NCBI GenBank assembly: GCA_965198115.1 | Contig: OZ240241.1 | Span: 5,920,001 to 5,984,000 of the forward strand | DNA from: Candidatus Latescibacterota bacterium | GTDB taxonomy: Bacteria; Latescibacterota; UBA2968 | Length of the DNA stretch: 64,000 bases | Reading direction: 5' to 3' | In this document: in pieces, positions 2,137 through 62,539 of the stretch | How the letters are laid out: the number at the start of each line of letters is the position of its first letter | Numbering within the stretch: position 1 is the first letter of the stretch | Program-made: the position numbers and the translations under genes | The notes under the pieces: model-generated | Databases searched by the model: none | Seen by the model: only the letters and a program-made list of their open reading frames with translations | What the model was told of the DNA's origin: nothing

Positions 2137-3750
2137 ATGCCACGCAACATCGACGATATCGGTTGGAACGCATCGAGTGAAGTCGGCGCCGTCGCAGCAG
2201 GAGGTGCGGGTGCAGTCGATGCTGGTCTCCAGATACTCGAAGCTGGAGGAAACGCAGCAGATGCCGCCGCGGCCACCATCTTCGCCCTCCAGGTCACCGA
2301 CCACGGCGCGTGTTGCATCGGCGGCGAGGTCCCGCTCCTGATCCACATCGCGGAAACGGGCGAGACAAAGTCGCTCTCCGGAATGGGGCGCGCTCCGCTA
2401 TCTCAGGACGCCATCGATTGGTACATGAAAAACGGGATCCCAGGTCCCGGCGACATGAAGATGGCGCCTGTGCCGTCCGTCGTTGACCTGTGTATCACCA
2501 CACTCAAGACCTACGGTACGAAGTCCCTAGAACAGATCATCGCACCCACGCTTGTCATCCTTGATGCCGGTACGGAGGAATGGGAACCCAAGCTCGCCAG
2601 GACCCTGCGTCGGATGGTCGACGAGGAACAAGCGACGTCCGGAAGCCGTGAGGAAAAACTCCAAGCCGCGTGTGATCGTTTTTATGGTCGCAGCAAGCGC
2701 TATAACGACATCGCCGAGGAACTCGAGGCTGAATTCAAGAAACACGGCAGCTTCCTGCGCATCTCCGACCTCGCGAACCATCGTACCCGCATCGAAGACC
2801 CTGTCACCGCCGATTATCGAGGCCATACCGTCTGCAAGTGCGACACGTGGACGCAGGGCCCCTTCCTCCTTCAAGCTCTACGCCTGATCGAAGGTTTCGA
2901 TGTGAAGGAGATGGGTCATCTCTCGGCAGACACCATTCATCTTTCAACCGAGATGCTCAAACTCGCCATGGCCGACAGGGACGCCTACTATGGCGATCCC
3001 GAGTTTGTCGACGTTCCGCTCGATACACTCCTCTCGGACGAGTACACCGACATGCGCCGACCCCTGATCGACATGACCACGGCGGATCTCGAAGCACGAC
3101 CGGGAGATCCATACGAGATGAAACCCGTCGCTCAGAACGGCGTATTTCGACCTGGTGGTGACGGCACTACCACCTGCGTCGTCGCAGACCGCTGGGGCAA
3201 CGTCGTCGCCGCGACGCCCAGCGCGAACGTCGACCGCAGCCGGATAGATGGGGGCGAGGCGGGCGTCACCTACGGCAACCGGCTCAAAAGTCTCAACACC
3301 GTACCTGGCCATCCCAACTGCATCATGCCGGGAAAGCGACCGCGCATCACCCTGACGCCCACCCTCGTCCTCAAGGATGGCAAACCGATTTATGCCATGA
3401 GTGTGGCCGGCGGGGACAAACAGGACCAGGCGATGCTCAATCTCATCATCAACGCCGTCGACTTTGGTATGCTCCCGTCAGACGCCGTCACCGCGCCCCG
3501 ATTCTGTACCTACCATCATCAGAACTCATTCGACCCGAACCCGGACCGATCGCAGACGTTCAACAACGCCGGCGCCCTCGAGCTCTGCTCTGACATCCCG
3601 GAAAGTGTTCGATCGGACCTGGCGCAGCGAGGCCATCCTGTCGAGGCGAAAGACGGCGCCATCGCCACTCCCGTGATGCTCAAAGTTGAAGACGGCACGA
3701 TCCACGCCGCCGGCGACCCGAACGCCAGACGCCACGCCGACGGGCTATAG
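2137..3750 (+). CDS. ggt: Gamma-glutamyltransferase family protein
   Basis: AGGNAADAAAA, DRDAYYGDP, nucleophile region GTTTCVVADRWGN and PGKRPR. ATG at 2137 follows an AGAGG RBS. Confidence 0.88.
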   Translation: MPRNIDDIGWNASSEVGAVAAGGAGAVDAGLQILEAGGNAADAAAATIFALQVTDHGACCIGGEVPLLIHIAETGETKSLSGMGRAPLSQDAIDWYMKNGIPGPGDMKMAPVPSVVDLCITTLKTYGTKSLEQIIAPTLVILDAGTEEWEPKLARTLRRMVDEEQATSGSREEKLQAACDRFYGRSKRYNDIAEELEAEFKKHGSFLRISDLANHRTRIEDPVTADYRGHTVCKCDTWTQGPFLLQALRLIEGFDVKEMGHLSADTIHLSTEMLKLAMADRDAYYGDPEFVDVPLDTLLSDEYTDMRRPLIDMTTADLEARPGDPYEMKPVAQNGVFRPGGDGTTTCVVADRWGNVVAATPSANVDRSRIDGGEAGVTYGNRLKSLNTVPGHPNCIMPGKRPRITLTPTLVLKDGKPIYAMSVAGGDKQDQAMLNLIINAVDFGMLPSDAVTAPRFCTYHHQNSFDPNPDRSQTFNNAGALELCSDIPESVRSDLAQRGHPVEAKDGAIATPVMLKVEDGTIHAAGDPNARRHADGL

Positions 3751-3776
3751 CAACTACATTCGTTCTACACTCTGCA

Positions 3777-33860: not shown

Positions 33861-34108
33861 GAATGGTTGACGCCGGACAGCTGTATGGTGAACTTCGTCA
33901 GCATTTGGGTGAAGTCCTAAGGGAATTGGCTCGTCAGCGTGAAAGCCGCGTAGAGGAGGGCCACCTCCTTGCAGATCACGTGCATATGCTGGTGTCGATT
34001 CCGCCGAAATGCGCTGTGTCTCAGGTCGTTGGGTATATCAAGGGCAAGAGCGCGATCCACGTCGCTCGCAGTTACCTGGGACGAAGGTCGGGTAGTGGTT
34101 CACTTTGA

Positions 34109-34981
34109 CTAACTGCGATCCTCACGGTTAATCCGCCCGCCTTTCATCAGCTTCCGTTCCTCATCTTCCAGCAGCTTCACTAAATCCTCGACGGCCCAGA
34201 CCCGATCCATCAGGCCAGCGGCCATTGCGGGCGTCCTTCTCTTCAGCGTCTTGTGCTTCCGGCAGAAGTTGTAGTAGAACATATGCAGGGCAATAGCGTG
34301 CACGTGGTTGATCCACTTTTTTGAGAAGCCATTGGTCAAGCGCGTGAACCGCCGATTTCCCATCCTCATCGTCAAATTCGACCGCTCGATATAGGACGTG
34401 GAGATATGGGCGGGATCTGGGTTGCCGACCACAGGCCGAACGTCGATACCGATGCACTTAGCTGGGCTGTAAGTCCTGTCCGCGTCGGGATCGGTCCCGT
34501 ACTGCTTCACGAGCTGGGCAAAGTCACAGGCCCCACCAAAAGCCTGCTCAATGGCCTCCGGATAGAAACTCAGGCCGTCAGATGTAATTTGGGGCCGATT
34601 CAAGAGACGACCGGCAACGTCGCCCACGAAGAGGTTGGCGTAGTTTGCGGTCCGCAAACCTACCTGATAAGCAATCATCAGTTTGGTATCTGAACACAGA
34701 GCCGTCCACGTCCAGCAATCTCCGTCACCCTGGGCGCCCTTCTTGCGATTCCCTTCCTTGCATCCAACGAAAGACCAAATCTCATCCATTTCAATCCGCG
34801 TGCAGGGAAGGTCACGGACTCTCCAGTCGTGGAAATCACGGCACAAGCTGCCGACATCGGCCAGCAACCGCAGGACCGTCAGCTTAGCAGCTCCGGTCAT
34901 ACGGCACGTAGACGCAATCGAACAACCTTCTACGAGGGCTGAGATGACCGCCATCCGCTTCTCCGTGCTGAGCTTTCGCAT
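34109..34981 (-). CDS. IS1-family DDE transposase (HTH plus DDE), intact
   Basis: LVEGCSI..TCR HTH, EMDEIWSFV, ITSDG and STSYIERSNLTMRM..RRFTRLTNGFSKK. Confidence 0.92.
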   Translation of the reverse strand: MRKLSTEKRMAVISALVEGCSIASTCRMTGAAKLTVLRLLADVGSLCRDFHDWRVRDLPCTRIEMDEIWSFVGCKEGNRKKGAQGDGDCWTWTALCSDTKLMIAYQVGLRTANYANLFVGDVAGRLLNRPQITSDGLSFYPEAIEQAFGGACDFAQLVKQYGTDPDADRTYSPAKCIGIDVRPVVGNPDPAHISTSYIERSNLTMRMGNRRFTRLTNGFSKKWINHVHAIALHMFYYNFCRKHKTLKRRTPAMAAGLMDRVWAVEDLVKLLEDEERKLMKGGRINREDRS

Positions 34982-35009
34982 TGACCTAGCCCTCTTATCA
35001 AGTTATCTT
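34981..35009 (+). promoter_or_regulatory. Predicted sigma70 promoter pointing antisense into the tRNA
   Basis: TTGACC (34981-34986), 17-nt spacer, TATCTT (35004-35009). Confidence 0.5.
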
Positions 35010-35045
35010 TCAGCGTCAAGTTGGAAATGGTGATAGTGGTTTTAT

Positions 35046-35121
35046 TGGTGGAGATAGGGGGACTCGAACCCCCAACCCCCCGGGTATAAGCCAGGTGCTC
35101 TACCGATTGAGCTATATCCCC
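35046..35121 (-). tRNA. 76-nt tRNA with anticodon UAU (Ile) but alanine-type acceptor stem (G3:U70, A73), encoded CCA
   Basis: GGGGATA TA GCTC AATCGGTA GAGC A CCTGG CT-TAT-AC CCGGG GGGTT GGGGG TTCGAGT CCCCC TATCTCC A CCA gives a complete cloverleaf with U8, G18G19, U33, TTCG and A15:U48. Confidence 0.93.
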
Positions 35122-35137
35122 ACCATTTTCATGTCTT

Positions 35138-35176
35138 ACCCCTTCAGCTGTTTGCGCAGCTGAAGGGGTCTTTTTT
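35138..35176 (+). terminator. Intrinsic terminator oriented for plus-strand (antisense-to-tRNA) transcription
   Basis: 13-bp stem ACCCCTTCAGCTG / CAGCTGAAGGGGT followed by CTTTTTT on the plus strand only. Confidence 0.7.
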
Positions 35177-35190
35177 GTTTCCCCTGGCTC

Positions 35191-35874
35191 TCACTGCTCC
35201 TGCCCATCGTCTTCATCTACGTCGTCAATATCTCCTGTAGCGACATCATCGCCCAGGTTGCGCTGGAAAACAATGAACGCATCAAACCACTTGTCCTGTC
35301 GTTCAGTAGGCCACTCTGGATCGAAATCCGGGAATTTTGCCATCAACATCTGCTGCATAGTCTGTGGCTGAGGTGAAGATGAGGTCTTGCGCTTCGCCTT
35401 CACCGAAGTGGATTTCAACCGCGCGCGGCGCGTTTGAATACGTGGACTGACGGTGATACCCGCAGCCTTGCATCCGCGCCGAAAGAATCTCGTCCCTTTC
35501 TGTAGAGTGCTCCCCTCCAAGCCTTGTTCCCGGAATGCGTCCTCCAGCTGTTTTGTGGTCGCCTTCTCCAGATCAAAGTCGTCGTTGAAGATGAACGAAA
35601 ACCGTTTGCGGAAAACACGCTCCAGAATAGGAGGCGAAGTAGATTCGTCTGCCCCCGCAAGCTCCCGTAATTCTTCTGTGGGGTCTCCATCCTCAGTGAT
35701 TAACCCGAGGAAACACAACGTCCCCAAGATCTGCCCTTGCGTGCCTCCGGACTGACTTGGGAACAAGCTCTTGTCGATGCGTGCCGGAATGCCCTGTTGG
35801 AAATCTGAGACAACCCTCTCGAAAGTGCGGTACGCCAGATACGGTGGTTTTGGATCGAAGTCGGGTTGTGCCAT
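35191..35874 (-). CDS. DUF5343-like protein (transposon cargo)
   Basis: PPY...TF, P.RIDKS, L.FLGLI..DG.PT, AT..QL..AF and T..K..RFF pattern. AAGGAG RBS. Confidence 0.7.
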   Translation of the reverse strand: MAQPDFDPKPPYLAYRTFERVVSDFQQGIPARIDKSLFPSQSGGTQGQILGTLCFLGLITEDGDPTEELRELAGADESTSPPILERVFRKRFSFIFNDDFDLEKATTKQLEDAFREQGLEGSTLQKGTRFFRRGCKAAGITVSPRIQTRRARLKSTSVKAKRKTSSSPQPQTMQQMLMAKFPDFDPEWPTERQDKWFDAFIVFQRNLGDDVATGDIDDVDEDDGQEQ

Positions 35875-35901
35875 AGCGCTCTCCTTTCTTTGTGTGCTAT
35901 A

Positions 35902-35930
35902 AATGTAGTTATGCCATGTGCCGTTGTCAA
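35902..35930 (-). promoter_or_regulatory. Predicted sigma70 promoter for the DUF5343-like gene and tRNA, with an operator-like motif in the spacer
   Basis: TTGACA, 17-nt spacer, TACATT on the minus strand. The spacer motif CGGCACA-T-GGCATA recurs inverted as CGGCACA-GGC-GGCATA at 35964-35979. Confidence 0.6.
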
Positions 35931-36013
35931 TGCCAAAACTGGACTTTTTCTAATTTTTCGTTGCGGCACAGGCGGCATAGACGCACAGTACATTAGTTAA
36001 AAGGAGGTGCCAC

Positions 36014-36260
36014 ATGCGGCGGACACGTTGTTGTAGTTAAGTTGTTTACAGGACCATTAGTTCGGCGTGTTTGGGATGTAACGGACGGTGTCGTCTTCGC
36101 TGTGCACGATGACAGGTTTGCCGAATTGGAGCAAGGCAAGGGAAAAGCGCCGCTCTTTGGGTTCCCGCTTGCAGACGTGTACGAGATGAGCGAAAGCGAG
36201 GTCCCCCCAAATCCTGATTGGTTGCAGATGCACCATTGGCGACCAACAGTGGGATCGTAG
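36014..36260 (+). CDS. Small hypothetical cargo protein, one extra base just after the start codon
   Basis: AAGGAGG RBS and ATG at 36014. Removing one base gives MRGHVVVVKLFTGPLVRRVWDV...FGFPLADVYE. Confidence 0.55.
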
Positions 36261-36287
36261 GGGGAGGTGCAACGCTGACCAGCATAG

Positions 36288-36326
36288 AAAAGCCCCCTGC
36301 CTGTGTAGGCAGAGGGCTTGATTTTT
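36288..36326. terminator. Bidirectional terminator between convergent cargo genes
   Basis: AAAAGCCCCCTGCCT-GTGT-AGGCAGAGGGCTTGATTTTT. Confidence 0.65.
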
Positions 36327-36333
36327 GACACGC

Positions 36334-36474
36334 TCACTGGCTGTCTTTGTCGTCCTTGGGTTCAGTAGCCTTATCTACAAGCCACTTCGCCAGCTGGTTT
36401 GGGTCCTTCGGTCTCGGGCCGCGTCCATCCTTTTCCTTGTCGTTCTTCGCCTGTTTCTTCGGTTCGTTTTCCAT
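36334..36474 (-). CDS. 46-aa charged protein with RPKDPNQLAK motif (absent from the ORF track)
   Basis: MENEPKKQAKNDKEKDGRGPRPKDPNQLAKWLVDKATEPKDDKDSQ. I recall this motif type beside this group of IS1-like transposases. Confidence 0.6.
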   Translation of the reverse strand: MENEPKKQAKNDKEKDGRGPRPKDPNQLAKWLVDKATEPKDDKDSQ

Positions 36475-36787
36475 ACCCGAAATCTACGTCATCAGCGAAA
36501 TCGGTTCAAGCACTCAGCGTGTCGAACTATCTTTCAAAGTGAACCACTACCGAAGGTCGAACTTCGTTGGGCAGAGTTTCTGGGCAAGAGGCTACGGGTC
36601 TCCACCGTAGGCAAGGATGAACATTCAGTTCGGGAATACATCCGAAACCAAGAACAAGAAGACCGACGCGTTGATCAGCTCAATCTGCTCAGATAGTTGC
36701 CACCTTTAGGTGGCGCGAGGTTTTAAACCGCTTTGAGCGGTTCACAGGCATTCAAGCCTCCGGCTTTGCCGGAGGTAATGACTTCAC

Positions 36788-38139: not shown

Positions 38140-38575
38140 ACTGTCTTAACAGCCGTGTGTCTTGCGCCCTGCGCCATGGACGTGAGTGATCTTTCCACAC
38201 ATACGGACCTGATGAGCCTTTCAGGGTACAAGATGTACGGTCCACAAGGGATCGGGGCATTGTATATTCGCCGTGATCTCAAAGAGTCGATGGAGCCACT
38301 GTTCTACGGAGGTGGGCAGCAGGAAGGCCTGCGTTCCGGGACCGTTCCAATGCCCCTCTGCGTCGGAATGGCCAAGGCCGCAGAAATCGTTGGTGGAGAC
38401 GACGGGAAAAAGGAGCGCACACGGGTCGCTCGACAGCGCGATACATTCATTAGCCTAATCCAAGGCGGGAATTCGTCGGTCACTGTCAATGGACCGATTG
38501 GCCAGCGGCGTCATCCGGGCAACGCCAACATTTGTTTTCACGGATTCGATGCGCGAGACATCCTCGGCGTCCTTC
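38140..38575 (+). pseudogene. Cysteine desulfurase (IscS/DndA-like) internal fragment
   Basis: DLMSLSGYKMYGPQGIGALY, GGGQQEGLRSGT and RHPGNAN. Lacks both termini and the catalytic Cys loop. Confidence 0.8.
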
Positions 38576-38578
38576 GGT

Positions 38579-41500
38579 ATGAGCGGAATGACACTTGACT
38601 GGAACAGTATCAGGCCCTTGGAGGGCGGACGAGACAAGGGCTTCGAAGAGCTATGCGCCCAGCTTGCCCGGGCGGAAAGGCCCTCCGGGTCTACGTTCGT
38701 GCGAAAAGGGACTCCGGACGCTGGAGTAGAGTGCTACGCAATCCTGAGTGACGGCGCCGAGTGGGCCTGGCAGTCCAAGTATATCGACGGACTCGGGGAC
38801 TCGCAGTGGTCTCAGATCGACGGAAGTATCAAGACGGCACTCGAGAAGCATCCAAAGCTGGTCCGCTATTTTGTCTGCGCGCCAGTAGATCGCGCAGATG
38901 CACGGATTGAGGGACGGAGGTCGGCGAAAGAGCGCTGGGATGACCACGTCGCGAAGTGGAGCAGGTGGGCATCCGATCGCGGAATGACGGTCGAATTCGT
39001 CTATTGGGGCAGCCATGAGCTGCTCGAACGCTTAGCCCGACCGGTCCATATCGGGCGTGTCCGATTCTGGTTCGATGTTCGAGGCTTCGATGCCCCGTGG
39101 TTTACGGCAAGGCTCGATGAGGCATTGCTGACTGCGGGTCCTCGCCACACCCCCGAGGTCCACGTTGACCTGCCCATCGCGTGGGAGTTCGAAGTGTTCG
39201 GACGCACTGATCGCTTCTTCGACCGCGAGATGGCTAGTGCCCGGAGAATCCGCAAGAAATTGAGAGCAGTCGAGTACTCGGAGGGCGCGGCCGAACCGAC
39301 TGTTGATGCTGGGTTGGCCGCCGTGTCGTCGAAGGTTCAGACGGTCCTCAACGTGATAGGCACCATCGACGTGCAGGCAATGGGTCCGCTGCCGTTCAGA
39401 GCCATCTCGGAGCAAGTCCACGCTGCAGAAGAAGCAGCCGAGGAACTTTCACGACTCCTGGGCGAACGCGAACGACGGTTGGAGGCCAAGCAAGAATCGC
39501 GGGACACGAAGGCGCGTCGGTCTTCCTACGGGAGTAACCCGTTCCGAGATCGCAGGATTCGGCTCCTACGTCTCATCTCCGAACTCGAAGCGGCGCGGAA
39601 GTCGTTCGTGCACGCGGATAAGGTTGCGGACAGCTCTTTGATGGTCCTCCGAGGCGCAGCAGGCACTGGCAAGACTCATTTGCTATGTGACGTTGCACGA
39701 CAGCGCGTCTCTGCGGGCCGACCAACGGTGTTGCTCATGGGCCAACGCTTCGTGAGCAATGATGAACCTTGGTCCCAAGCGCTTCAGCAATTGGACCTAT
39801 CCAGTCTGTCGGTAGAGGAGTTCGTCGGTGCGCTCGAAGCCGCGGCGCAGGCCGCCGGCTCACGAGCACTGTTAGTGATCGACGCGATCAATGAGGGCGC
39901 CGGACAGAACATCTGGCCAAGCCATCTCACCGCCTTTCTGGCATACTTGGAGCGCTCGCCATGGATTGGCGTGGTGCTGGCGGTCCGTTCGTCCTTCGAA
40001 GAGTTCATCCTTCCCGCAGTCGTACGCTCCCGTGCCGCCGTCGTGACGCACTCAGGATTCAGGGGGGTTGAGTACGACGCCACTAAGACTTTCTTCGTCC
40101 ACTACGATTTGGAGCTTCCATCGACCCCGCTCCTTGCGCCGGAGTTCCAGAACCCTCTGTTTCTCAAGACGTTGTGCCGGGGTCTCCATGCGAAGGGCGA
40201 GCGTCGCCTCCCTCGCGGCTTTCACGGCATCACAGCCGTGTTCGACCTGTATCTCAGTGCGGTGAATGAGCGGCTAGCGTCGAGTCTTGACTTCGATTCC
40301 CGGATGCCATTCGTACGACAGGCTGTGGGAGCTGTTTCGGAGGCAATCCTCGACTCAGGCGAGTCCTGGCTCACCTTGACGAAGGCAGGAGAAGTCGTCA
40401 ACCGCTTTCTTGCCGGTCGGGACTTTGAGCGATCTCTCTACCGGGGACTGGTCGCAGAAGGTGTCCTTCTTGAGGAAGTGGCGCGACCGCAGGACGCGAA
40501 TGCCGAGGTGGTAGTCGTCATTGCATACGAACGTTTTGCTGATCATCTCGCAGCCAGGAGCTTGCTGGGCAGTTACCTCGACGTCAACGACCCCCCCTCT
40601 GCGTTTGCGGCGACGGGAGGTCTGGCGTTCATCTGCGATGACAAGCACTACGTTTCACCCGGCCTCCTTGAGGCCCTATGCATCCAGATTCCCGAACAGA
40701 CCGGACAGGAACTCATCTTCGTCGCTCCAACTTGTGCCGATCGATGGGGACTTGGGGACGCGTTCCGGCAGAGCCTCGTCTGGCGCACATACGCAGCTTT
40801 CTCGGAGGACACGCGCCGAGCGCTGAACAAGCTGTGCCGAAGCGAGCAGGACTGGCGCGACACCCTCGACGTGCTGCTCACCGTGGCCACGTTGCCCAGA
40901 CATCCGCTCAATGCGTGGTTTCTCGATCAGCGGCTTCGAAGAGACGCGATGCCGGATCGCGATGCGTGGTGGAGCTTGTACCTCCACCACGCGTATGGTA
41001 CCCACGGTCCCGTCGACAGGCTTGTGGATTGGGCGTCCTCGCTGGATCCGAGCACGTCGATTGATGACGAGGCCGTTGACCTGTGCGCCGTCGCGCTGTC
41101 GTGGATGCTTACCACCTCGAATCGGTTTCTGCGTGACCGCGCAACGACGGCTCTCGTGAGCCTTCTTACAGATCGCCTGGCGGCTGTGGTTCGGCTCGTT
41201 GGGCGGTTCGCTGATGTTGACGATCCGTACGTGGCCGAGCGTGTCCACGCCGTGGCGTACGGGGTCGCCATGCGCTGTCACGATCCTGTCGCAGTCGGTA
41301 CTCTGGCAACGTGTGTGTACGAGAGAGTCTTCGCTTCGGGGAGTCCGCGTCCGCATATCCTCCTCAGGGACTATGCACGCGGCGTTGTCGAGCGTGCGCT
41401 GCACCTTGGGTCGAAGATTGACGTGGTCCCCGATCGCGTTCGCCCGCCCTACAAGAGCACATGGCCCACAATCCCGACCGAGGAGAACATCAAGACGCTG

Positions 41501-43204
41501 CTACCCGATTGGTCCAAGGGAGCCCATGACAGCGGTGAGCTTGAGTGGGCGCGGAACCGAATCGGCAGCTCAGTTATGGATGACGACTTCGCGCGCTATG
41601 TGATCGGCACCAACTGGTCGGGGAGCGACTGGCTGTCATTCAAACTGGAGGAACCGCAGTGGAAACCGCCGCCGCGACCCGAGGATTTGTTGTGCTCCTT
41701 GGTTGGCGAGTTCTCGTCCGATGAGCGTACGGCCTGGGAAGAGTTTGAGGCCGCTGACGAGGCGTATTCGGCGGCATTGCGGTCGGTCTCTCATGTTTGG
41801 TTTGCGCAACGTGAGAAAGATGGCACATCGCGGAGCCTTGATCTTTCGAACTCGGAGGGCCTTGCGCAGGAGTTGGAGGCGGCACGCCCTGCCGAGGTTG
41901 CGGCGTTGGAAGCGAAACGAGAGCAGGCAATCGTCGCCTTGGAGGCGGTTCTCTCTGGCGAGCATGCGCAGCGACTAGCCAAGATCTGGTCCGCGCGGGA
42001 AAACGACCACGAGTCACGTCGTCCGCCTCGGTTCGAGCTTCACGAGATCCAGCGCTACGTTCTCTGGCGGGTCTTCGACCTGGGATGGACGACCGAGCGT
42101 TTCGGGTACTTCGACTGGTTCTACAGCGGATACCACGGACGTGATGCATCGAAGGCAGAGCGGATCGGCAAGAAATACCAGTGGATCGCATACCACGAGA
42201 TCATGGCGCTAGTTTCCGATCACTACCAATACCGAGAGTGTTTTCGAGAGGAAGAGGGCGATCAGGCGTATGAAGGACCTTGGCAGGGTCGCCTTCGAGA
42301 CATCGACCCTTCGTGCACGTTGAGATCTCTACGAGGCGGAGGCTCCTGGGACGGCCATGCAGTCTCGTGGTGGGGGTCGGCTCGGTACGATGCTTGGGGA
42401 GATCCCCTCAGGCCTCTCGACTGGGTCCTGAACGCTAACGACTTGCCGAAAGTCGAGGACCTGCTCGTCGTCACCAACCCCGCGGACGACTCGCGCTGGG
42501 TGAACGGCCAAGGTTTCTTCTCTTGGAAGCAGCAACCACCGACAGATCGGGAATCGACCGACGTCGAGCGTCGTGAGCTTTGGTACAAGTGCACAGGCTA
42601 CTTGCTCCGGGCAGATGACGTGGAGTCCTTCTTGCGGTGGGCCGAGGGGACCGACTTTGCGCGTTGTTGGATGCCGGAGGCGGTCAAGGTCGACGAAATC
42701 TTCCTGGGCGAGCACGCTTGGGCAACGGCCTCTCACTACTTCCAGCACCCATATTACGGTGACGACGGCTGGACCCAGCCGGCCCACGGCTGCCCAGTGA
42801 AGGTCCGGACCGTCACGTGCGAGTATCTGCGCGAGACAAGTGGCTTCGACTGCTCCATCGAAGAGAGCTACACACTTCGTCTACCCGCCATCGACCTTGT
42901 CAACGGCCTCGGAATCTGGTGGAGCGGGCGTGGCGCCGACTTCGTGGATGGTGCGGACCGAGTCGTTGCACAGGATCCAACAGTTCATTCCGAGGGTCCG
43001 GGCGCCATGCTCCTTAGAGATGATCTACTTGGAGAGTTTCTGGCCCGCGAGAAGCTCGCGATCTGCTGGGCTGTCTTTGGTGAGAAGCGCGTGATTTCGC
43101 CGGGCTTTGGGACCGGGCCCCATCATCCCCGGCTCCGTGTGTCCGGGGCGTACGTGCTTGCAGAGGGACGCGCAGTGGGCTTCGTCAAAACCCATGATCG
43201 ATGA
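38579..43204 (+). CDS. Large STAND/NACHT NTPase with N-terminal PD-(D/E)xK-like nuclease, AVAST (Avs2-like) antiphage protein
   Basis: N-terminal FEELCAQL...PDAGVECY...WQSKY. Walker A GAAGTGKTH, Walker B LLVIDAINE, NPLFLK and C-terminal ERIGKKYQWIAYHE. About 1540 aa. Confidence 0.78.
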   Translation: MSGMTLDWNSIRPLEGGRDKGFEELCAQLARAERPSGSTFVRKGTPDAGVECYAILSDGAEWAWQSKYIDGLGDSQWSQIDGSIKTALEKHPKLVRYFVCAPVDRADARIEGRRSAKERWDDHVAKWSRWASDRGMTVEFVYWGSHELLERLARPVHIGRVRFWFDVRGFDAPWFTARLDEALLTAGPRHTPEVHVDLPIAWEFEVFGRTDRFFDREMASARRIRKKLRAVEYSEGAAEPTVDAGLAAVSSKVQTVLNVIGTIDVQAMGPLPFRAISEQVHAAEEAAEELSRLLGERERRLEAKQESRDTKARRSSYGSNPFRDRRIRLLRLISELEAARKSFVHADKVADSSLMVLRGAAGTGKTHLLCDVARQRVSAGRPTVLLMGQRFVSNDEPWSQALQQLDLSSLSVEEFVGALEAAAQAAGSRALLVIDAINEGAGQNIWPSHLTAFLAYLERSPWIGVVLAVRSSFEEFILPAVVRSRAAVVTHSGFRGVEYDATKTFFVHYDLELPSTPLLAPEFQNPLFLKTLCRGLHAKGERRLPRGFHGITAVFDLYLSAVNERLASSLDFDSRMPFVRQAVGAVSEAILDSGESWLTLTKAGEVVNRFLAGRDFERSLYRGLVAEGVLLEEVARPQDANAEVVVVIAYERFADHLAARSLLGSYLDVNDPPSAFAATGGLAFICDDKHYVSPGLLEALCIQIPEQTGQELIFVAPTCADRWGLGDAFRQSLVWRTYAAFSEDTRRALNKLCRSEQDWRDTLDVLLTVATLPRHPLNAWFLDQRLRRDAMPDRDAWWSLYLHHAYGTHGPVDRLVDWASSLDPSTSIDDEAVDLCAVALSWMLTTSNRFLRDRATTALVSLLTDRLAAVVRLVGRFADVDDPYVAERVHAVAYGVAMRCHDPVAVGTLATCVYERVFASGSPRPHILLRDYARGVVERALHLGSKIDVVPDRVRPPYKSTWPTIPTEENIKTLLPDWSKGAHDSGELEWARNRIGSSVMDDDFARYVIGTNWSGSDWLSFKLEEPQWKPPPRPEDLLCSLVGEFSSDERTAWEEFEAADEAYSAALRSVSHVWFAQREKDGTSRSLDLSNSEGLAQELEAARPAEVAALEAKREQAIVALEAVLSGEHAQRLAKIWSARENDHESRRPPRFELHEIQRYVLWRVFDLGWTTERFGYFDWFYSGYHGRDASKAERIGKKYQWIAYHEIMALVSDHYQYRECFREEEGDQAYEGPWQGRLRDIDPSCTLRSLRGGGSWDGHAVSWWGSARYDAWGDPLRPLDWVLNANDLPKVEDLLVVTNPADDSRWVNGQGFFSWKQQPPTDRESTDVERRELWYKCTGYLLRADDVESFLRWAEGTDFARCWMPEAVKVDEIFLGEHAWATASHYFQHPYYGDDGWTQPAHGCPVKVRTVTCEYLRETSGFDCSIEESYTLRLPAIDLVNGLGIWWSGRGADFVDGADRVVAQDPTVHSEGPGAMLLRDDLLGEFLAREKLAICWAVFGEKRVISPGFGTGPHHPRLRVSGAYVLAEGRAVGFVKTHDR

Positions 43205-43544
43205 TCCCAACGGTGAGGCACTGGCCCTAGCCGATTTCCTGGCCGAGGTGACGTCCGTGCCCGCGTCTTCTCCCGTGGTCTTTGACGATCCGATCACGAG
43301 CATGGACTATCGCCGAATCCACGAAGTCTGCGACCGCGGCCAGGGCTGGTCAGTGCACCCTCCTGATCCGGTCGACCGTGGCCGATGCGATCGAGACGTG
43401 GCGGCGGCTGGCAGCGCGAGGGAAAGGGATACCGCACCCTTTCCGTCAGCGAATGTGACTTGCCCCTCGTGCTGCGAAGCGTACCTAAGCTGGTTGATCC
43501 AACCGGTCATGTATCTGAACCGGTACAAGGTTACCGGACGGAGC

Positions 43545-43830
43545 CTATTCCACCCAAGCGCCAATAATCTGCAAGCAAAAGCCTAGAACCAGAAGTCCAA
43601 GCCCTTTCTTGGCGCTCTTGGACTGAAGGAAAAAATGGGAAATCAGCGGTACTTTGAGGAACTCATCATCATCAGAATCATCGTTAGGCATCCAGTATGT
43701 GCTGCCTAACCGAATTGCTTCTTTTTTGGACAAAGAGGCCGCAGGCCAATACCACGGCTCCTAAGATGTCAAATATTAATCCAATAGTCGAAACTACACG
43801 ACTGTCTATCAGAAGGCAGTGCCAGTCCAT
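43545..43830 (-). CDS. Small two-TM protein, frameshifted near 43733
   Basis: MDWH...IGLIFDILGAVVLA joins SKKEAIRLG...GLGLLVLGFCLQIIG. Confidence 0.55.
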
Positions 43831-43879
43831 GGGCTTTTCCCTCTCTTGCTTCGGGTTGTCTGAGAGCATGACGCGGCGG

Positions 43880-44270
43880 CTTGATTCCCATTGCTGAAGC
43901 CTTCTCTGATCTGAGCGGCGGGCCGGTGGCGGCGCTCCGCGCGCCACCACTTCACCCAGGCCGACCAGGTGAACCAGCTTGTCGGGGCCAGCGAAGCGGA
44001 CCCCGATCTCGGCTTCATGGCGCGGACGATGGCGCTGTGCTCCCTGCCCCGCACTAACCCCGGCAACCGCCACCAGTACAAGCGCGTCAACGGTCCCTAC
44101 AAGCTCATCAATGTCGGTCACCGGGGATCACAAGCTCCCCTTCGGCAATCTGCCGCGCTTGATTCTGGCCTGGGTCTCGACCGAAGCGGTGTGGACCTAA
44201 AGCCGCGAGCTGGTGCTAGGGAAAGTCGTTTTCCGAGTTCATGCGGACCCTGGGGGTCTACAGCAGCGGG
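43880..44270 (+). pseudogene. Plasmid RepA remnant, copy 2
   Basis: GFMARTMALCSLPRTNPGNRHQYKRVNGPYKL...KLPFGNLPRLILAWVSTEAV, with a stop and frameshift. Confidence 0.7.
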
Positions 44271-44487
44271 GGCCGGGATCGTGTTCATGGGACTTCGACC
44301 CCGAACGGCCGTCGGTCGAGTTGCCGGTATCGCCGAGCAAGATTGAAGCCGATGAGCGGTCCGCGCCCGGTCCAATGATCCTGCTTGAAGGGGGCTTGCT
44401 TGGCCCATCGAGACACGCTCGCCCGAATCTCCTATAATCAGGCGACAAGTCTGAAAGGTAGACTGCTCCCGGCTCGAATGAGCGGTC

Positions 44488-44575
44488 GTGAGGAAGTCGG
44501 AGTTCAGCGGAGCCAAATGGTCGGAATTCTCAAAGAAGCCGAAGCGGGCGTCCCGATTCCCGATCTGCGTCGCCC
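44488..44575 (+). mobile_element. IS3-family orfA remnant
   Basis: MRKSEFS / QMVGILKEAEAGVPIPDL. Confidence 0.55.
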
Positions 44576-44585
44576 GAGTCGAGAG

Positions 44586-44628
44586 CCGTGAGGTTGCTGA
44601 CGATGAAGAGCTGGACGAAGCACAGAAG
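44586..44628 (-). repeat. 43-bp perfect inverted copy of hsdR bases 45302-45344
   Basis: CCGTGAGGTTGCTGACGATGAAGAGCTGGACGAAGCACAGAAG is the exact reverse complement. Confidence 0.95.
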
Positions 44629-44806
44629 ACAGGCCACGTCGATAGCCGCCCAAGCACGACCGGGAAGGCAGAATGATGGATCAAGCCATCCACAACAATA
44701 TCGTCTCCTTCATCCGTGGCATCGAAGCCAACCTCGGGTCGCGTTCGCATTTATCACCGGACAGTCGGACGCTTTCAGCAGACGCCAAAAGGAGTGAGTC
44801 CCCGCG

Positions 44807-47662
44807 ATGGCGATGATCACACCCGAACGCGATCTTGAAGAGTCCCTTGTCACGAAGCTACGGGACCTCAAGTACGAATACCGCCCCGACATCCGCGATC
44901 GAGCCAAGCTTGAAGCGAACTTCAGGGAGAAGTTCGAGGCACTCAACCGCGTCAACCTCACCGGCGGAGAGTTCCAGCGACTCCTCGACGAGATCGTCAC
45001 ACCAGATGTGTACGAAGCCGCACGCTCCCTCCGGAACCGGGAAGCGTTCATCCGTGACGACGGCACGCCGCTCAATTACACCCTCGTCGACATCAAGGAC
45101 TGGTGCAAGAACACCTTCGAGGTCGTTAATCAGCTCCGCATCAATACGGACAACAGCCATCATCGCTACGACGTCATATTCCTGATCAACGGCGTACCCG
45201 TTGTCCAGATCGAGCTCAAGACGCTTGGGATCAGCCCCCGTAGGGCGATGGAGCAGATCGTCGACTACAAGAACGACCCCGGTAACGGATACGCCAAGAC
45301 GCTTCTGTGCTTCGTCCAGCTCTTCATCGTCAGCAACCTCACGGACACGTGGTACTTCGCCAACAACAACGCGCGGCATTTCGCCTTCGACGCTGACGAG
45401 CGGTTCCTTCCCATCTACCAGTTCGCGGCCGAGGACAACACGAAGATCACCCACCTCGACGACTTCGCCGATCGGTTCCTGGCCAAGTGCACACTCGGCC
45501 AGATGCTCAGCAAGTATATGGTCCTCATCGCGAGCGAGCAGAAGCTCCTGATGATGCGCCCGTACCAGATCTACGCCGTCAAGGCCATCGTCGACTGCAT
45601 CGACCAGAACTGCGGCAACGGCTACATCTGGCACACGACCGGCTCGGGCAAGACGCTCACCTCTTTCAAAACCTCGACACTCCTCAAGACCAACGAGAGC
45701 ATCCACAAGTGTCTGTTCGTCGTCGACCGCAAGGACCTCGACCGCCAGACCCGCGAGGAGTTCAACCGATTCCAAGAGAACTGCGTCGAGGAAAACACCA
45801 ACACCGCAGCGCTTGTCTGCCGCCTCCAGTCCGACGACTACGCGGACAAGGTCATCGTCACGACCATCCAGAAGCTCGGGCTCGCCCTCGACGAGAACAG
45901 CAAGCACAACAAGCAAAACCTCGCTCAGGGGCGGTCAACGTTCAAGCAGCGGCTCGGGCAGCTCCGCGACAAGCGGATGGTCTTCATCTTCGACGAGTGC
46001 CACCGCTCGCAGTTCGGCGAGAACCACAAGGCCATCAAGGAGTTCTTCCCGAACTCCCAGCTCTTCGGCTTCACTGGCACCCCGATCTTTAAGGACAACG
46101 CGACCGTCAAGCAGATCGAGGGAGACATCGCCACCCTTCGAACCACCAAGGACCTCTTCCAGAAGGAGCTCCACGCCTACACCATCACCCACGCGATCGA
46201 GGATCGGAACGTCCTCCGCTTCCACGTCGACTACTACAAGCCAAAGGACGCCCCCGCCCTCAAGCCCGGTGAGACCCTCGCCAAGCAGGCGGTCGCTCAG
46301 GCCATCCTCGACAAGCACGATGCCGCGACCGGAGACCGACGCTTCAACGCGCTGCTGGCCACCGCCTCGATCAACGACGCCATCGAGTATTACAAGGTCT
46401 TCAAGCAGCTTCAGACCCAACGCCCGGCCGACGACCCCGAGTTCGTCCCCCTCAAGGTCGCCGCCGTCTTCTCGCCGCCAGCGGAGGGCAACAAGGACGT
46501 CCAGCAGATCCAGGAGGACCTCCCCCAGGAGAAGGAGGACAACCAGCACGACCCCGAGGGCAAGAAGACCGCGCTCAGGGCCATCATCACCGACTACAAC
46601 CAGCAGTACGGCACGAACCACGACATCAACAACTTCGACCTCTACTACCAAGACATCCAGCAGCGCATCAAGGACCAGCAGTTCCCCAACCGCGACCTGC
46701 CCCGGAAGGGCGAGGAGAAGGTCGACATTACCATCGTCGTCGACATGCTCCTCACCGGCTTCGACGCCGTGTACCTCAACACGCTCTACGTCGATAAGAA
46801 CCTCAAGCACCACGGCTTGATCCAGGCCTTCTCCCGCACCAACCGCGTCCTCAACGCGACCAAACCCTACGGCCACATCCTCGACTTCCGCCAGCAGCAA
46901 GACAGCGTCGACGCCGCTATCGCTCTCTTCTCCGGTGCGCAGGCTGACCGGGCCCGCGAGATCTGGCTGGTCGAAAAAGCTCCCGTCGTCATCGACAACT
47001 TCGAGCAGGCCGTTGCCGACCTTGGCGAGTTCATGCAGTCGCAGGGCCTCGAAGCCAAGCCCGATCAGGTGAACAACATGATGGGCGACGACGCCCGTGC
47101 CCAGTTCATCAAGCGATTCAAGGAGGTCCAGTGCCTCCAGACCCAACTCGACCAGTACACCGACCTCACCGACGAGCAGCGCGAGCAGATTGAGCAGGTC
47201 CTCCCCGAGCACGACCTCCGCGCCTTCCGCGGCACCTACCTCGAAACGGCCCAGCGCCTGAAAGAGCAGCAGGGCACGCCCGGCGGGGACGGCGAGCCGG
47301 CCAACCTCGAGATCACGGATAGCAGATCGCCCGAGCACCTCAGCTCCGAATGTCTGGTTCATCTCTTTCGAGACGCACACCGGAAGGGGGACGATCGCCG
47401 TACGAGCGCAATATTGCCGGTCCTGCTCGGTCGCTGCGAGGCGATCCTCAAGACGAAGATCCTAGATTCGGAGCGCGGTGCCAGTGAAATGCGGGAAGAG
47501 GTGTTGTCCAGATTCGGCGAGGTGCTCGCCAGCGACGGCCGACCGAGCTCGACATGTATGAGTGCAGATTCAATCGAGCCTTTCACGCCCTACGCTTCGA
47601 TGTTGTGGATCGCGAACGTAGACGCCTCTAGGGCGCACTGTGGAAGTACCACGTGGGGATGA
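44807..47662 (+). CDS. hsdR: Type I restriction enzyme R subunit, C-terminus replaced by unrelated sequence after ~47310
   Basis: RYDVIFLINGVPVVQIELK, WHTTGSGKT, DECHRSQ, FTGTP, MLLTGFD and QAFSRTNR. Codon style changes abruptly near 47310. Only scraps of hsdM are present (44676-44720, 47820-47880). Confidence 0.9.
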   Translation: MAMITPERDLEESLVTKLRDLKYEYRPDIRDRAKLEANFREKFEALNRVNLTGGEFQRLLDEIVTPDVYEAARSLRNREAFIRDDGTPLNYTLVDIKDWCKNTFEVVNQLRINTDNSHHRYDVIFLINGVPVVQIELKTLGISPRRAMEQIVDYKNDPGNGYAKTLLCFVQLFIVSNLTDTWYFANNNARHFAFDADERFLPIYQFAAEDNTKITHLDDFADRFLAKCTLGQMLSKYMVLIASEQKLLMMRPYQIYAVKAIVDCIDQNCGNGYIWHTTGSGKTLTSFKTSTLLKTNESIHKCLFVVDRKDLDRQTREEFNRFQENCVEENTNTAALVCRLQSDDYADKVIVTTIQKLGLALDENSKHNKQNLAQGRSTFKQRLGQLRDKRMVFIFDECHRSQFGENHKAIKEFFPNSQLFGFTGTPIFKDNATVKQIEGDIATLRTTKDLFQKELHAYTITHAIEDRNVLRFHVDYYKPKDAPALKPGETLAKQAVAQAILDKHDAATGDRRFNALLATASINDAIEYYKVFKQLQTQRPADDPEFVPLKVAAVFSPPAEGNKDVQQIQEDLPQEKEDNQHDPEGKKTALRAIITDYNQQYGTNHDINNFDLYYQDIQQRIKDQQFPNRDLPRKGEEKVDITIVVDMLLTGFDAVYLNTLYVDKNLKHHGLIQAFSRTNRVLNATKPYGHILDFRQQQDSVDAAIALFSGAQADRAREIWLVEKAPVVIDNFEQAVADLGEFMQSQGLEAKPDQVNNMMGDDARAQFIKRFKEVQCLQTQLDQYTDLTDEQREQIEQVLPEHDLRAFRGTYLETAQRLKEQQGTPGGDGEPANLEITDSRSPEHLSSECLVHLFRDAHRKGDDRRTSAILPVLLGRCEAILKTKILDSERGASEMREEVLSRFGEVLASDGRPSSTCMSADSIEPFTPYASMLWIANVDASRAHCGSTTWG

Positions 47663-62171: not shown

Positions 62172-62539
62172 TGGTGGAGGCGGCGGGAATCGAACCCGCG
62201 TCCGAAAGCGCTTCTGCGACGGCGTCTACGTGTGTAGCCTGCCTACTTGAGTCTCGCGCGCCGTTGCCCCGGCAGGCTGGGTCAACGGCGCGCCAGCTAG
62301 AGACTATTTCGCTCCTGGTCCCTCTAGCGGAGGACCACGTGCTAGCCTGCTCTAGTCGACGCCCCGGTAGGGCCACACAGGCGAGGCCCAGCGGAACGGG
62401 CTGAACCTAACGGTTGGTCAGGCAGCCATTGCGTACGAGTTATCGTCCGCAGTTGCGGTTTTTCCCACGGTTTAACGAGGTAATGGACCTCGACACGCAG
62501 CCTTCGCATCCCCGCCCTCGTCGAAGCCTGATCGCCCCC
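62172..62539 (-). ncRNA. ssrA: tmRNA, tag peptide (A)ADDNSYAMAA encoded at 62418-62450
   Basis: 5' GGGGGCGAUCAGGCUUCGAC, 3' GGGUUCGAUUCCCGCCGCCUCCACCA, and a resume-codon context followed by a tag ending AA-stop. Confidence 0.96.

Follow-up and report, generated by a model that had tools for sequence, protein, structure and literature searches.

The window analysed here is a stretch of 64,000 nucleotides from the genome of a Candidatus Latescibacterota bacterium. On its minus strand it contains a tRNA gene with the anticodon UAU, which lies together with protein-coding genes inside a transposon. The following features were annotated (window positions):

34083..34090, plus strand: 8-bp target duplication, first copy (second copy at 36552-36559); the target is a split IS200/IS605 tnpA gene
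34091..36551: complete IS1-family cargo transposon, 2,461 bp, delimited by inverted repeats, target duplication and empty-site joint
34091..34108: perfect 18-bp inverted repeat downstream of the transposase
34109..34981, minus strand: single-ORF IS1-family transposase, 290 aa, intact, no ATA among 14 Ile codons
34981..35009, plus strand: predicted sigma-70 promoter (9/12 consensus matches), directed into the tRNA in antisense
35016..35178, plus strand: cis-antisense RNA predicted from its promoter and terminator, about 165 nt long and spanning the entire tRNA
35046..35121, minus strand: tRNA gene with an Ala-type acceptor (G3:U70, A73, encoded CCA) and anticodon UAU, supported by ARAGORN, Rfam, host comparison and a diverged copy
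35138..35179, plus strand: intrinsic terminator with a 14-bp stem and a T-run on the plus strand only
35191..35874, minus strand: DUF5343-like passenger gene, 227 aa, no ATA among 10 Ile codons
35902..35930, minus strand: predicted sigma-70 promoter (10/12) for DUF5343, tRNA and transposase
36334..36474, minus strand: 46-aa basic peptide, weakly resembling short terminal ORFs of related IS1 elements
36534..36551: perfect 18-bp inverted repeat at the cargo end

The transposon and its genes

The original prediction described the tRNA as transposon-borne, and the perfect 18-bp inverted repeats, the 8-bp target duplication and the insertion in an IS200 tnpA gene confirm this. The empty-site joint (34081-36551) was found in three of four sequencing runs compared. 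This joint and a diverged copy in another study (see below) may point to mobility, but several copies of IS200 are present, and the empty site could belong to one of the others. The same genome holds one full copy of the element, one truncated relative (95%) and one 47% relative, which carries a tRNA of its own (L068). The transposase matches PF03400 with 27.9 bits (cut-off 24.1), and its top homologs are named IS1 family transposase. We take the element to belong with the IS1-family single-ORF elements with passenger genes (ISfinder). It shares with them the PF03400 transposase, the terminal inverted repeats, the 8-bp target duplication and the presence of cargo genes, but its cargo includes a tRNA, of which the literature covered, mostly titles and abstracts, gave no published case.

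On the minus strand the order is 46-aa peptide (one of the similar ORFs is annotated as "histone H1"), promoter, DUF5343-like gene, hairpin, tRNA, 64 nt and transposase, and the DUF5343-like gene is likely co-transcribed with the tRNA and the transposase. An alignment-based structure model of the DUF5343-like protein reached a pLDDT of 78.5, while a single-sequence model was poor; compared with the PDB, the model gave no match at E<=0.001, with BrxA and IdeR as weak matches only. We rejected a fixed partnership between DUF5343 and the tRNA, as none of 29 chromosomal DUF5343-like loci contained a tRNA. The DUF5343 profile had no match in the 79 loci L022-L100 other than this element's own. Both real DUF5343 matches in viral contigs are followed by an off-code tRNA, of amber type in L259 and with UAU in L260; two further viral matches were false positives and were dropped. 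The tRNA of L259 (L259:2471-3610) is Leu-like with a CUA anticodon, and no IS1 transposase match was found in that locus. A single-copy chromosomal DUF5343-like gene is present in 62 of 76 genomes of one family from the host's class (L264-L292), near accA-like and queC-like genes (named by eye).

Elsewhere in the window, the neighbourhood of the insertion site looks defence-like (38489-47662), with an ATPase-domain protein of 1571 aa and subunit R of a type I restriction system, and a tmRNA gene with the tag ADDNSYAMAA lies at 62172-62539. ARAGORN also reports a tRNA-Pro at 3683-3755, but Rfam does not back this call, which is probably spurious.

Structure and conservation of the tRNA

The 76-nt gene folds as a canonical 7/5 cloverleaf, and its variable loop has 5 nt. 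ARAGORN calls it tRNA-Ile(TAT), and the score against Rfam RF00005 is 70.9 bits (cut-off 29). All four stems are paired, with G1:C72, G2:C71, G3:U70 and G4:C69 in the acceptor stem, U29:G41 in the anticodon stem and several G:U pairs; A73, an encoded CCA and the anticodon loop CU-UAU-AC complete the picture. The intact cloverleaf with CCA, G3:U70 and UAU that had been proposed from the letters is therefore borne out.

Contigs from two sequencing runs, X1 (35048-36580, depth 9.6) and X2 (35048-35260, depth 8.65), are identical to the window, though both possibly come from the source sample itself. These contigs speak against a misassembled anticodon or U70, as neither a TGC anticodon nor C70 occurs in them.

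A diverged copy was found in run X3 from another study, in which one contig spans 34253-36552 with 48 substitutions and 39 gap positions relative to the window. This is a single contig of depth 2, and low-depth contigs may carry errors. Over 34940-35260 it has 20 differing letters, 18 of which are listed. Six changes fall in the tRNA: U20C, G31A with the compensatory C39U, C32U, G41A (which turns a U:G into a U:A pair) and G46A. None of the listed differences lies in the acceptor stem, the anticodon or CCA. Next to the tRNA, the antisense promoter keeps its hexamers and differs at two positions of the spacer; in the terminator, a G:C pair is replaced by A:T in a compensatory manner, and the loop differs. 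Paired changes of this kind are unlikely to be sequencing errors. Random decay in homologs, instead of conservation of G3:U70 with UAU, had been named as a finding that would refute the idea; the X3 copy retains both through its six tRNA changes.

The leader of the tRNA contains UGGU, which is able to pair with ACCA and hide the 3' end. We rejected this as a special lock, since one other of the 74 host tRNA calls, an ordinary tRNA, has UGGU as well. An imperfect inverted repeat of 9-10 bp flanks the tRNA (35020-35131); flipping this segment would place the tRNA in sense between promoter and terminator, and both known copies have the same orientation.

Alanine and isoleucine identity marks

The alanine identity assigned in the original prediction agrees with the comparison to the host's own tRNAs. 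Over the acceptor stem, N73 and CCA, all 18 positions agree with host tRNA-Ala(UGC), and among the 74 host tRNA calls G3:U70 occurs only in the three tRNA-Ala genes and in the transposon tRNA. From the tRNA-Ala set, G3:U70 with G1:C72, G2:C71 and A73 is present and the NGC anticodon is absent, with UAU instead; from the tRNA-Ile(UAU) set, A35, U36, A37 and A73 are present, and C4:G69 and a Watson-Crick 3:70 pair are absent. In the accessible text of PMC9976931, G3:U70 is the main AlaRS determinant and C4:G69 an Ile determinant, and that of PMC11028032 describes the anticodon as unread by AlaRS, SerRS and LeuRS.

As controls, UAU tRNAs were taken without fixing the acceptor, which gave a set of 132. 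Of these, 103 are well-folded viral tRNAs (from 111 distinct genes in 120 loci of about 4,600 stretches) and 29 are housekeeping-type tRNAs from Patescibacteria, the phylum of the Peribacteria match (30 loci fetched; UAU pattern in 159 of 301 genomes). G3:U70 was found in none of the 103 viral and none of the 29 Patescibacteria controls. C4:G69 is present in 27/29 Patescibacteria and 50/103 viral controls, while the transposon tRNA has G4:C69. C38, which had been put forward as a mark against isoleucine, fails in that role: the transposon tRNA has it, but so do 8/29 and 9/103 of these ordinary UAU tRNAs, respectively, and we rejected it.

Two further parts of the original prediction are not supported. 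The first is the origin of the gene from a tRNA-Ala by two anticodon substitutions. Identity to host tRNA-Ala(UGC) is just 51/76 over the whole gene and 5/17 in the anticodon arm, and a recent anticodon mutant of the host tRNA was therefore rejected. The second is the use of E. coli IleRS rules for this host. The host IleRS has eukaryote-like motifs, is missing the C-terminal zinc motif and presumably belongs to type 2 (eukaryote-like). The E. coli rules may not hold for such an enzyme, because in E. coli it is a Trp in the zinc domain through which IleRS rejects UAU (PMC3575796, accessible text). The host AlaRS gene is full-length and intact. Judged from these marks, the transposon tRNA is likely charged with alanine by AlaRS, and mixed charging with Ala and Ile by the host enzymes is possible.

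AUA decoding in the host

The host genome encodes TilS, a CAU tRNA with an Ile2-type acceptor and a separate, array-borne UAU tRNA with C4:G69, and therefore has no need of the transposon tRNA. As had been expected, AUA is rare in this GC-rich host and commoner in AT-rich genes: in 4,131 crude ORFs it makes up 5.1% of Ile codons (2.6 per 1000 codons, in 64% of ORFs), against 18-20% in ORFs with GC3 < 0.55. According to the accessible passages of two papers, in B. subtilis an unmodified UAU anticodon is a strong reader of AUA and a weak one of AUG (PMC3919564), and on E. coli ribosomes both AUA and AUG are read (PMC3575796).

The element's own genes contain no ATA among 24 Ile codons (14 in the transposase, 10 in DUF5343), and its two small ORFs have none either. 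We rejected avoidance of AUA as self-immunity. Against matched backgrounds, 24 Ile codons would include no ATA with a probability of 0.09-0.28, and 22 of 36 tRNA-less transposases likewise have none, so the absence is unremarkable. Transposases of related UAU elements, moreover, retain ATA (4/14 Ile codons in L035, 3/14 in L056 and 3/8 in L028), which also speaks against self-immunity. As a separate observation, ATA recurs at transposase codon 193 (L080, L083, L091, L094, L035, L322, L329), even in high-GC3 transposase genes without a detected tRNA; L091 comes from a genome flagged as unpublished.

A predicted antisense unit over the tRNA

The promoter and terminator on the plus strand delimit a predicted antisense unit that is new here and was absent from the original prediction. 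The RNA would begin roughly 35 nt before the transposase gene does and would leave the ribosome-binding site of the transposase uncovered. The promoter is a weak match (9/12), and 1.3 such sites are expected by chance in the region. A promoter pointing back in this way was found in 4/4 same-orientation UAU IS1 elements (this one, L035, L056 and L260) versus 31/103 tRNA-less elements (Fisher p=0.01, post hoc). As about 30% of tRNA-less elements have one, it could be a generic leftward promoter. Promoter and antisense terminator occur together in this element, in L056, in L260/L417 and in L416, where a long-arm UAU tRNA lies at a SWIM-DDE transposase, and at 0/53 host tRNAs.

The pattern is not general. 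The antisense promoter was found in none of five other odd tRNAs of the same orientation, the terminator is absent from L035, none of the 24 records matching the G3:U70-UAU pattern (see below) has both signals, and 8 of 10 long-arm UAU candidates from 120 loci, L381 included, have neither. Near L381 are a transposase resembling IS1595 and, by eye, a RelE/HTH-like pair.

Related tRNAs and the cargo of IS1 elements

A search of genomes and metagenomes for homologs had been suggested, and the class does recur. The class pattern, G1G2G3/U70C71C72A73 with UAU, matched 9 genome and 15 metagenome records from unrelated phyla, two of which (L026 and L042) represent the same gene. There were no matches to it in viral contigs. 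No close homolog of the transposon tRNA was found in plasmids or in 60 relatives, and single-protein transposase scans of viral contigs gave no matches. Among the matches, L035 belongs to an IS1 element, L026/L042 and L028 lie beside IS1595 transposases, L023 has a serine recombinase and L034 the start of a Cas9 gene in its context, and for many others no mobile context is evident. L023 comes from a genome with an ordinary Ile(UAU) gene as well, which makes its G3:U70 copy an extra one. In L034 (2500-5072) the tRNA lies about 60 nt upstream of the Cas9 gene; further features are an upstream antisense terminator and neighbouring genes that look BREX-like by eye. Three matches from Bacteroidota (L022, L025, L027) form a subfamily with a disrupted anticodon stem and a common downstream motif.

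UAU is found on different non-Ile bodies in L035, L056 and L260 (IS1), in L026/L042 and L028 (beside IS1595) and in L416 (before a SWIM-DDE transposase). Of 56 IS1 loci from genomes, plasmids and metagenomes, nine were dropped as duplicates or 5'-truncated. The remaining 47 were found from the transposase and include this element and the pattern-found L035; 12 of them contain a tRNA-like gene. In viral contigs such a gene lies at most 400 nt upstream in 6 of 73 distinct IS1 loci (from the best 80 of 234). L090, one of the 12, and the tRNA-less controls L091 and L093 come from genomes flagged as unpublished. Together with L260, a deleted element found via DUF5343, there are 23 tRNA-like genes in 19 IS1 elements, mostly directly upstream of the transposase. 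By eye, eight are Ala-type, seven long-arm Ser/Leu-type, two Arg-type with the Ser anticodon GCU, in which C35-U36 is kept, and six other. L329 and the third gene of L308 may be cognate; nearly all other cargo tRNAs look off-code, and some have degenerate D or anticodon arms (L066, L076, L068). Ala, Ser and Leu account for about 12 of some 50 core host tRNA genes. The cargo of these elements, whose members are kin and not independent, thus favours tRNA bodies of anticodon-blind synthetases, as would be expected under selection for wrong charging.

Several individual cases are recorded here in their own right. L068, in a second IS1-family element of the same genome (G000:C1, about 4043058-4043145, minus strand), is a 9/3 allo-tRNA-like gene with G73, driven by a divergent 11/12 promoter. 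The transposase of this element has a TGA at a conserved Trp. In-frame TGA codons at conserved Trp positions (69 or 90) occur in three IS1 transposases (L068, L076, L094) and represent either decay or read-through. Off-code cargo in L067, L073, L314, L309 and L308 includes an Ala body with UCA (opal), Arg bodies with GCU (two elements), a Ser body with GUA and compact Ala bodies with Gly-type loops in tandem clusters. Elsewhere in the host genome (L258, G000:C1:2870558-2872531) about 20 tRNA calls form an array among IS elements; one is a further Ile(TAT), mismatched at C1:A72, and others are two short-arm Leu and one long-arm Thr(TGT).

A possible mechanism and its alternatives

The tRNA is real, conserved and transposon-borne; the core idea of the original prediction, that it miscodes, is a hypothesis. 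We tentatively favour a reading in which an AlaRS-charged tRNA that inserts Ala at AUA is held off by the predicted cis-antisense RNA, in the manner of a type I toxin-antitoxin system. Starting from what is observed in the DNA, namely the gene, its identity marks, its place in the element, its conservation and a consensus promoter and terminator, we infer the following steps. Transcription from 35930 would read through the DUF5343-like gene and the hairpin, which has no U-run on the minus strand, into the tRNA. RNase P and 3' trimming would release the tRNA, and host AlaRS would charge it. Its unmodified U34 would read AUA, and weakly AUG, and competition with the lysidine-containing tRNA-Ile2 would lead to partial substitution by Ala. 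The antisense RNA would normally pair with the tRNA precursor and trigger its decay. When antisense synthesis stops, through loss of the element or when a phage shuts off host transcription, the stable tRNA would accumulate and spoil proteins, those of AUA-rich foreign genes most.

The alternative that survives best, though we consider it rather unlikely, is that the tRNA acts outside decoding, either as a decoy, be it of anticodon nucleases, of synthetases or of modification enzymes, or as a signal for processing or stability by which the transcript of DUF5343 and the transposase is split. Of the allo-tRNA(UAU) amber variants, six were tested and none supported translation; the authors proposed non-translational roles (PMC5389517, accessible text). 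The degenerate arms of L066, L076 and L068, the usual position of the tRNA just upstream of the transposase, and the leader that can mask the 3' end point the same way. In the present element, however, every arm is canonical, G3:U70 and UAU are kept while other positions change, and the leader motif is shared with an ordinary host tRNA. Neither a decoy nor a cut signal would need the bias of the tRNA bodies toward anticodon-blind synthetases.

It is also unlikely that a low, tolerated level of miscoding raises proteotoxic stress or the mutation rate and so favours transposition instead of killing or defence. This draws on the same identity and conservation evidence as the toxin reading, and at 2.6 AUA per 1000 host codons the damage could be mild. 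Missense tRNAs that act as mutators (E. coli mutA) and the control of transposases by proteases lend it support. Yet the genome shows no transposition burst, with one full copy and one truncated 95% relative, and most related elements have no tRNA (6/73 viral loci have one).

We regard as improbable a role as supplementary AUA decoder, charged with Ile by the host type-2 IleRS and helping AT-rich mobile genes. UAU tRNAs are indeed the normal AUA readers in Patescibacteria (159/301 genomes match) and common in viral contigs, C38 is compatible with them, and the zinc motif with the Trp through which UAU is rejected in E. coli is missing from the host IleRS. What weighs against it is that none of the 132 controls has G3:U70, that the C4:G69 of 27/29 Patescibacteria tRNAs is absent here, that the host already has TilS, the CAU Ile2-type tRNA and a second UAU tRNA with C4:G69, and that the element's genes contain no AUA.

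Neutral decay of a captured tRNA, to which the several G:U pairs, the degenerate family members and the 51/76 identity to host tRNA-Ala could be ascribed, is very improbable and already largely refuted by the compensatory and pair-improving changes in X3, the Rfam score of 70.9 bits and the recurrence of G3:U70 with UAU, a combination that 24 further records of unrelated phyla also have. Scarcely credible, too, is a private decoder by which the element would recode AUA in its transposase: the transposases of L035, L056 and L028 have 3-4 ATA codons, but the positions in L035 and L056 do not coincide, and for the present element it is refuted by the absence of ATA from transposase, DUF5343 and both small ORFs.

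Relation to known systems and significance

The nearest known class is formed by the allo-tRNAs, which according to the accessible parts of Mukai et al. (NAR 2017, PMC5389517) and PMC7609411 combine a mismatched identity and anticodon, most commonly have UAU and are found near a transposon-related ORF and toxin-antitoxin genes. In PMC5389517, members with G3:U70 inserted Ala in E. coli, and cells were killed by two of the allo-tRNA(UAU) variants. The transposon tRNA resembles them in its identity-anticodon mismatch, in UAU and in its link to a transposon ORF; an allo-tRNA has Ser or Ala identity with a non-cognate anticodon, which applies here, and a 9/3 allo-like gene (L068) lies in another IS1 element of the same genome. 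Allo-tRNAs differ in having an 8/4 or 9/3 acceptor branch and a long variable arm, whereas here the branch is 7/5, the variable loop has 5 nt and the identity is Ala. Judged by these features, the transposon tRNA would work like an allo-tRNA(UAU) without belonging to the class, which is defined by the 8/4 or 9/3 branch. The text passages and one supplement file of PMC5389517 and the accessible text of PMC7609411 name no IS1 element or antisense RNA.

The tRNA-ProX of Streptomyces are likewise natural bacterial tRNAs of hybrid identity that mistranslate, but they have a Pro body with an Ala, Asn or Thr anticodon, often a dedicated ProRSx, and are of chromosomal type (PMC10404621, PMC11415595, accessible text). 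Here an Ala body carries an Ile anticodon on a transposon, with no synthetase in the element; the terms "transpos", "mobile" and "phage" do not occur in PMC10404621. The tRNA-Ile(UAU) of Mycoplasma mobile, of B. subtilis tilS suppressors and of Patescibacteria share an unmodified UAU that reads AUA, with AUG reading weak or dependent on the ribosome. In the accessible passages of PMC3575796 and PMC3919564 these are charged with Ile and replace the TilS system, whereas the present tRNA has G3:U70 with G4:C69 in a host with TilS.

The proposed control has its own parallel. In type I toxin-antitoxin systems of the hok/sok type, a short cis-antisense RNA overlaps a harmful gene on a mobile element, and the toxin is a small protein. 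The transposon likewise has a predicted cis-antisense RNA with its own promoter and terminator over a potentially harmful gene, but the toxin would be a tRNA, and the antisense unit covers the tRNA only. In the literature, covered mostly at title and abstract level and with few subscription papers, we found no canonical Ala-body UAU tRNA, no tRNA cargo of IS1 elements and no antisense-locked tRNA toxin.

Natural bacterial tRNAs of mismatched identity have been published; the one described here is canonical, needs just host enzymes, lies in an intact 2.5-kb element and has a predicted off-switch, which makes its role directly testable in a laboratory strain. Annotation based on the anticodon mislabels such genes as tRNA-Ile. 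More broadly, though this is more doubtful than the reading for the single element, transposons of the IS1, IS1595 and SWIM-DDE families might carry miscoding tRNAs as RNA toxins, the AUA-reading ones locked by cis-antisense RNA. If the mechanism is true, the element would hold a toxin-antitoxin or abortive-infection module in which both partners are non-coding RNA and the toxin acts through the genetic code, rewriting it at a rare codon. It would also give a function to the unexplained allo-tRNA(UAU) class and be a natural source of tools for sense-codon reassignment.
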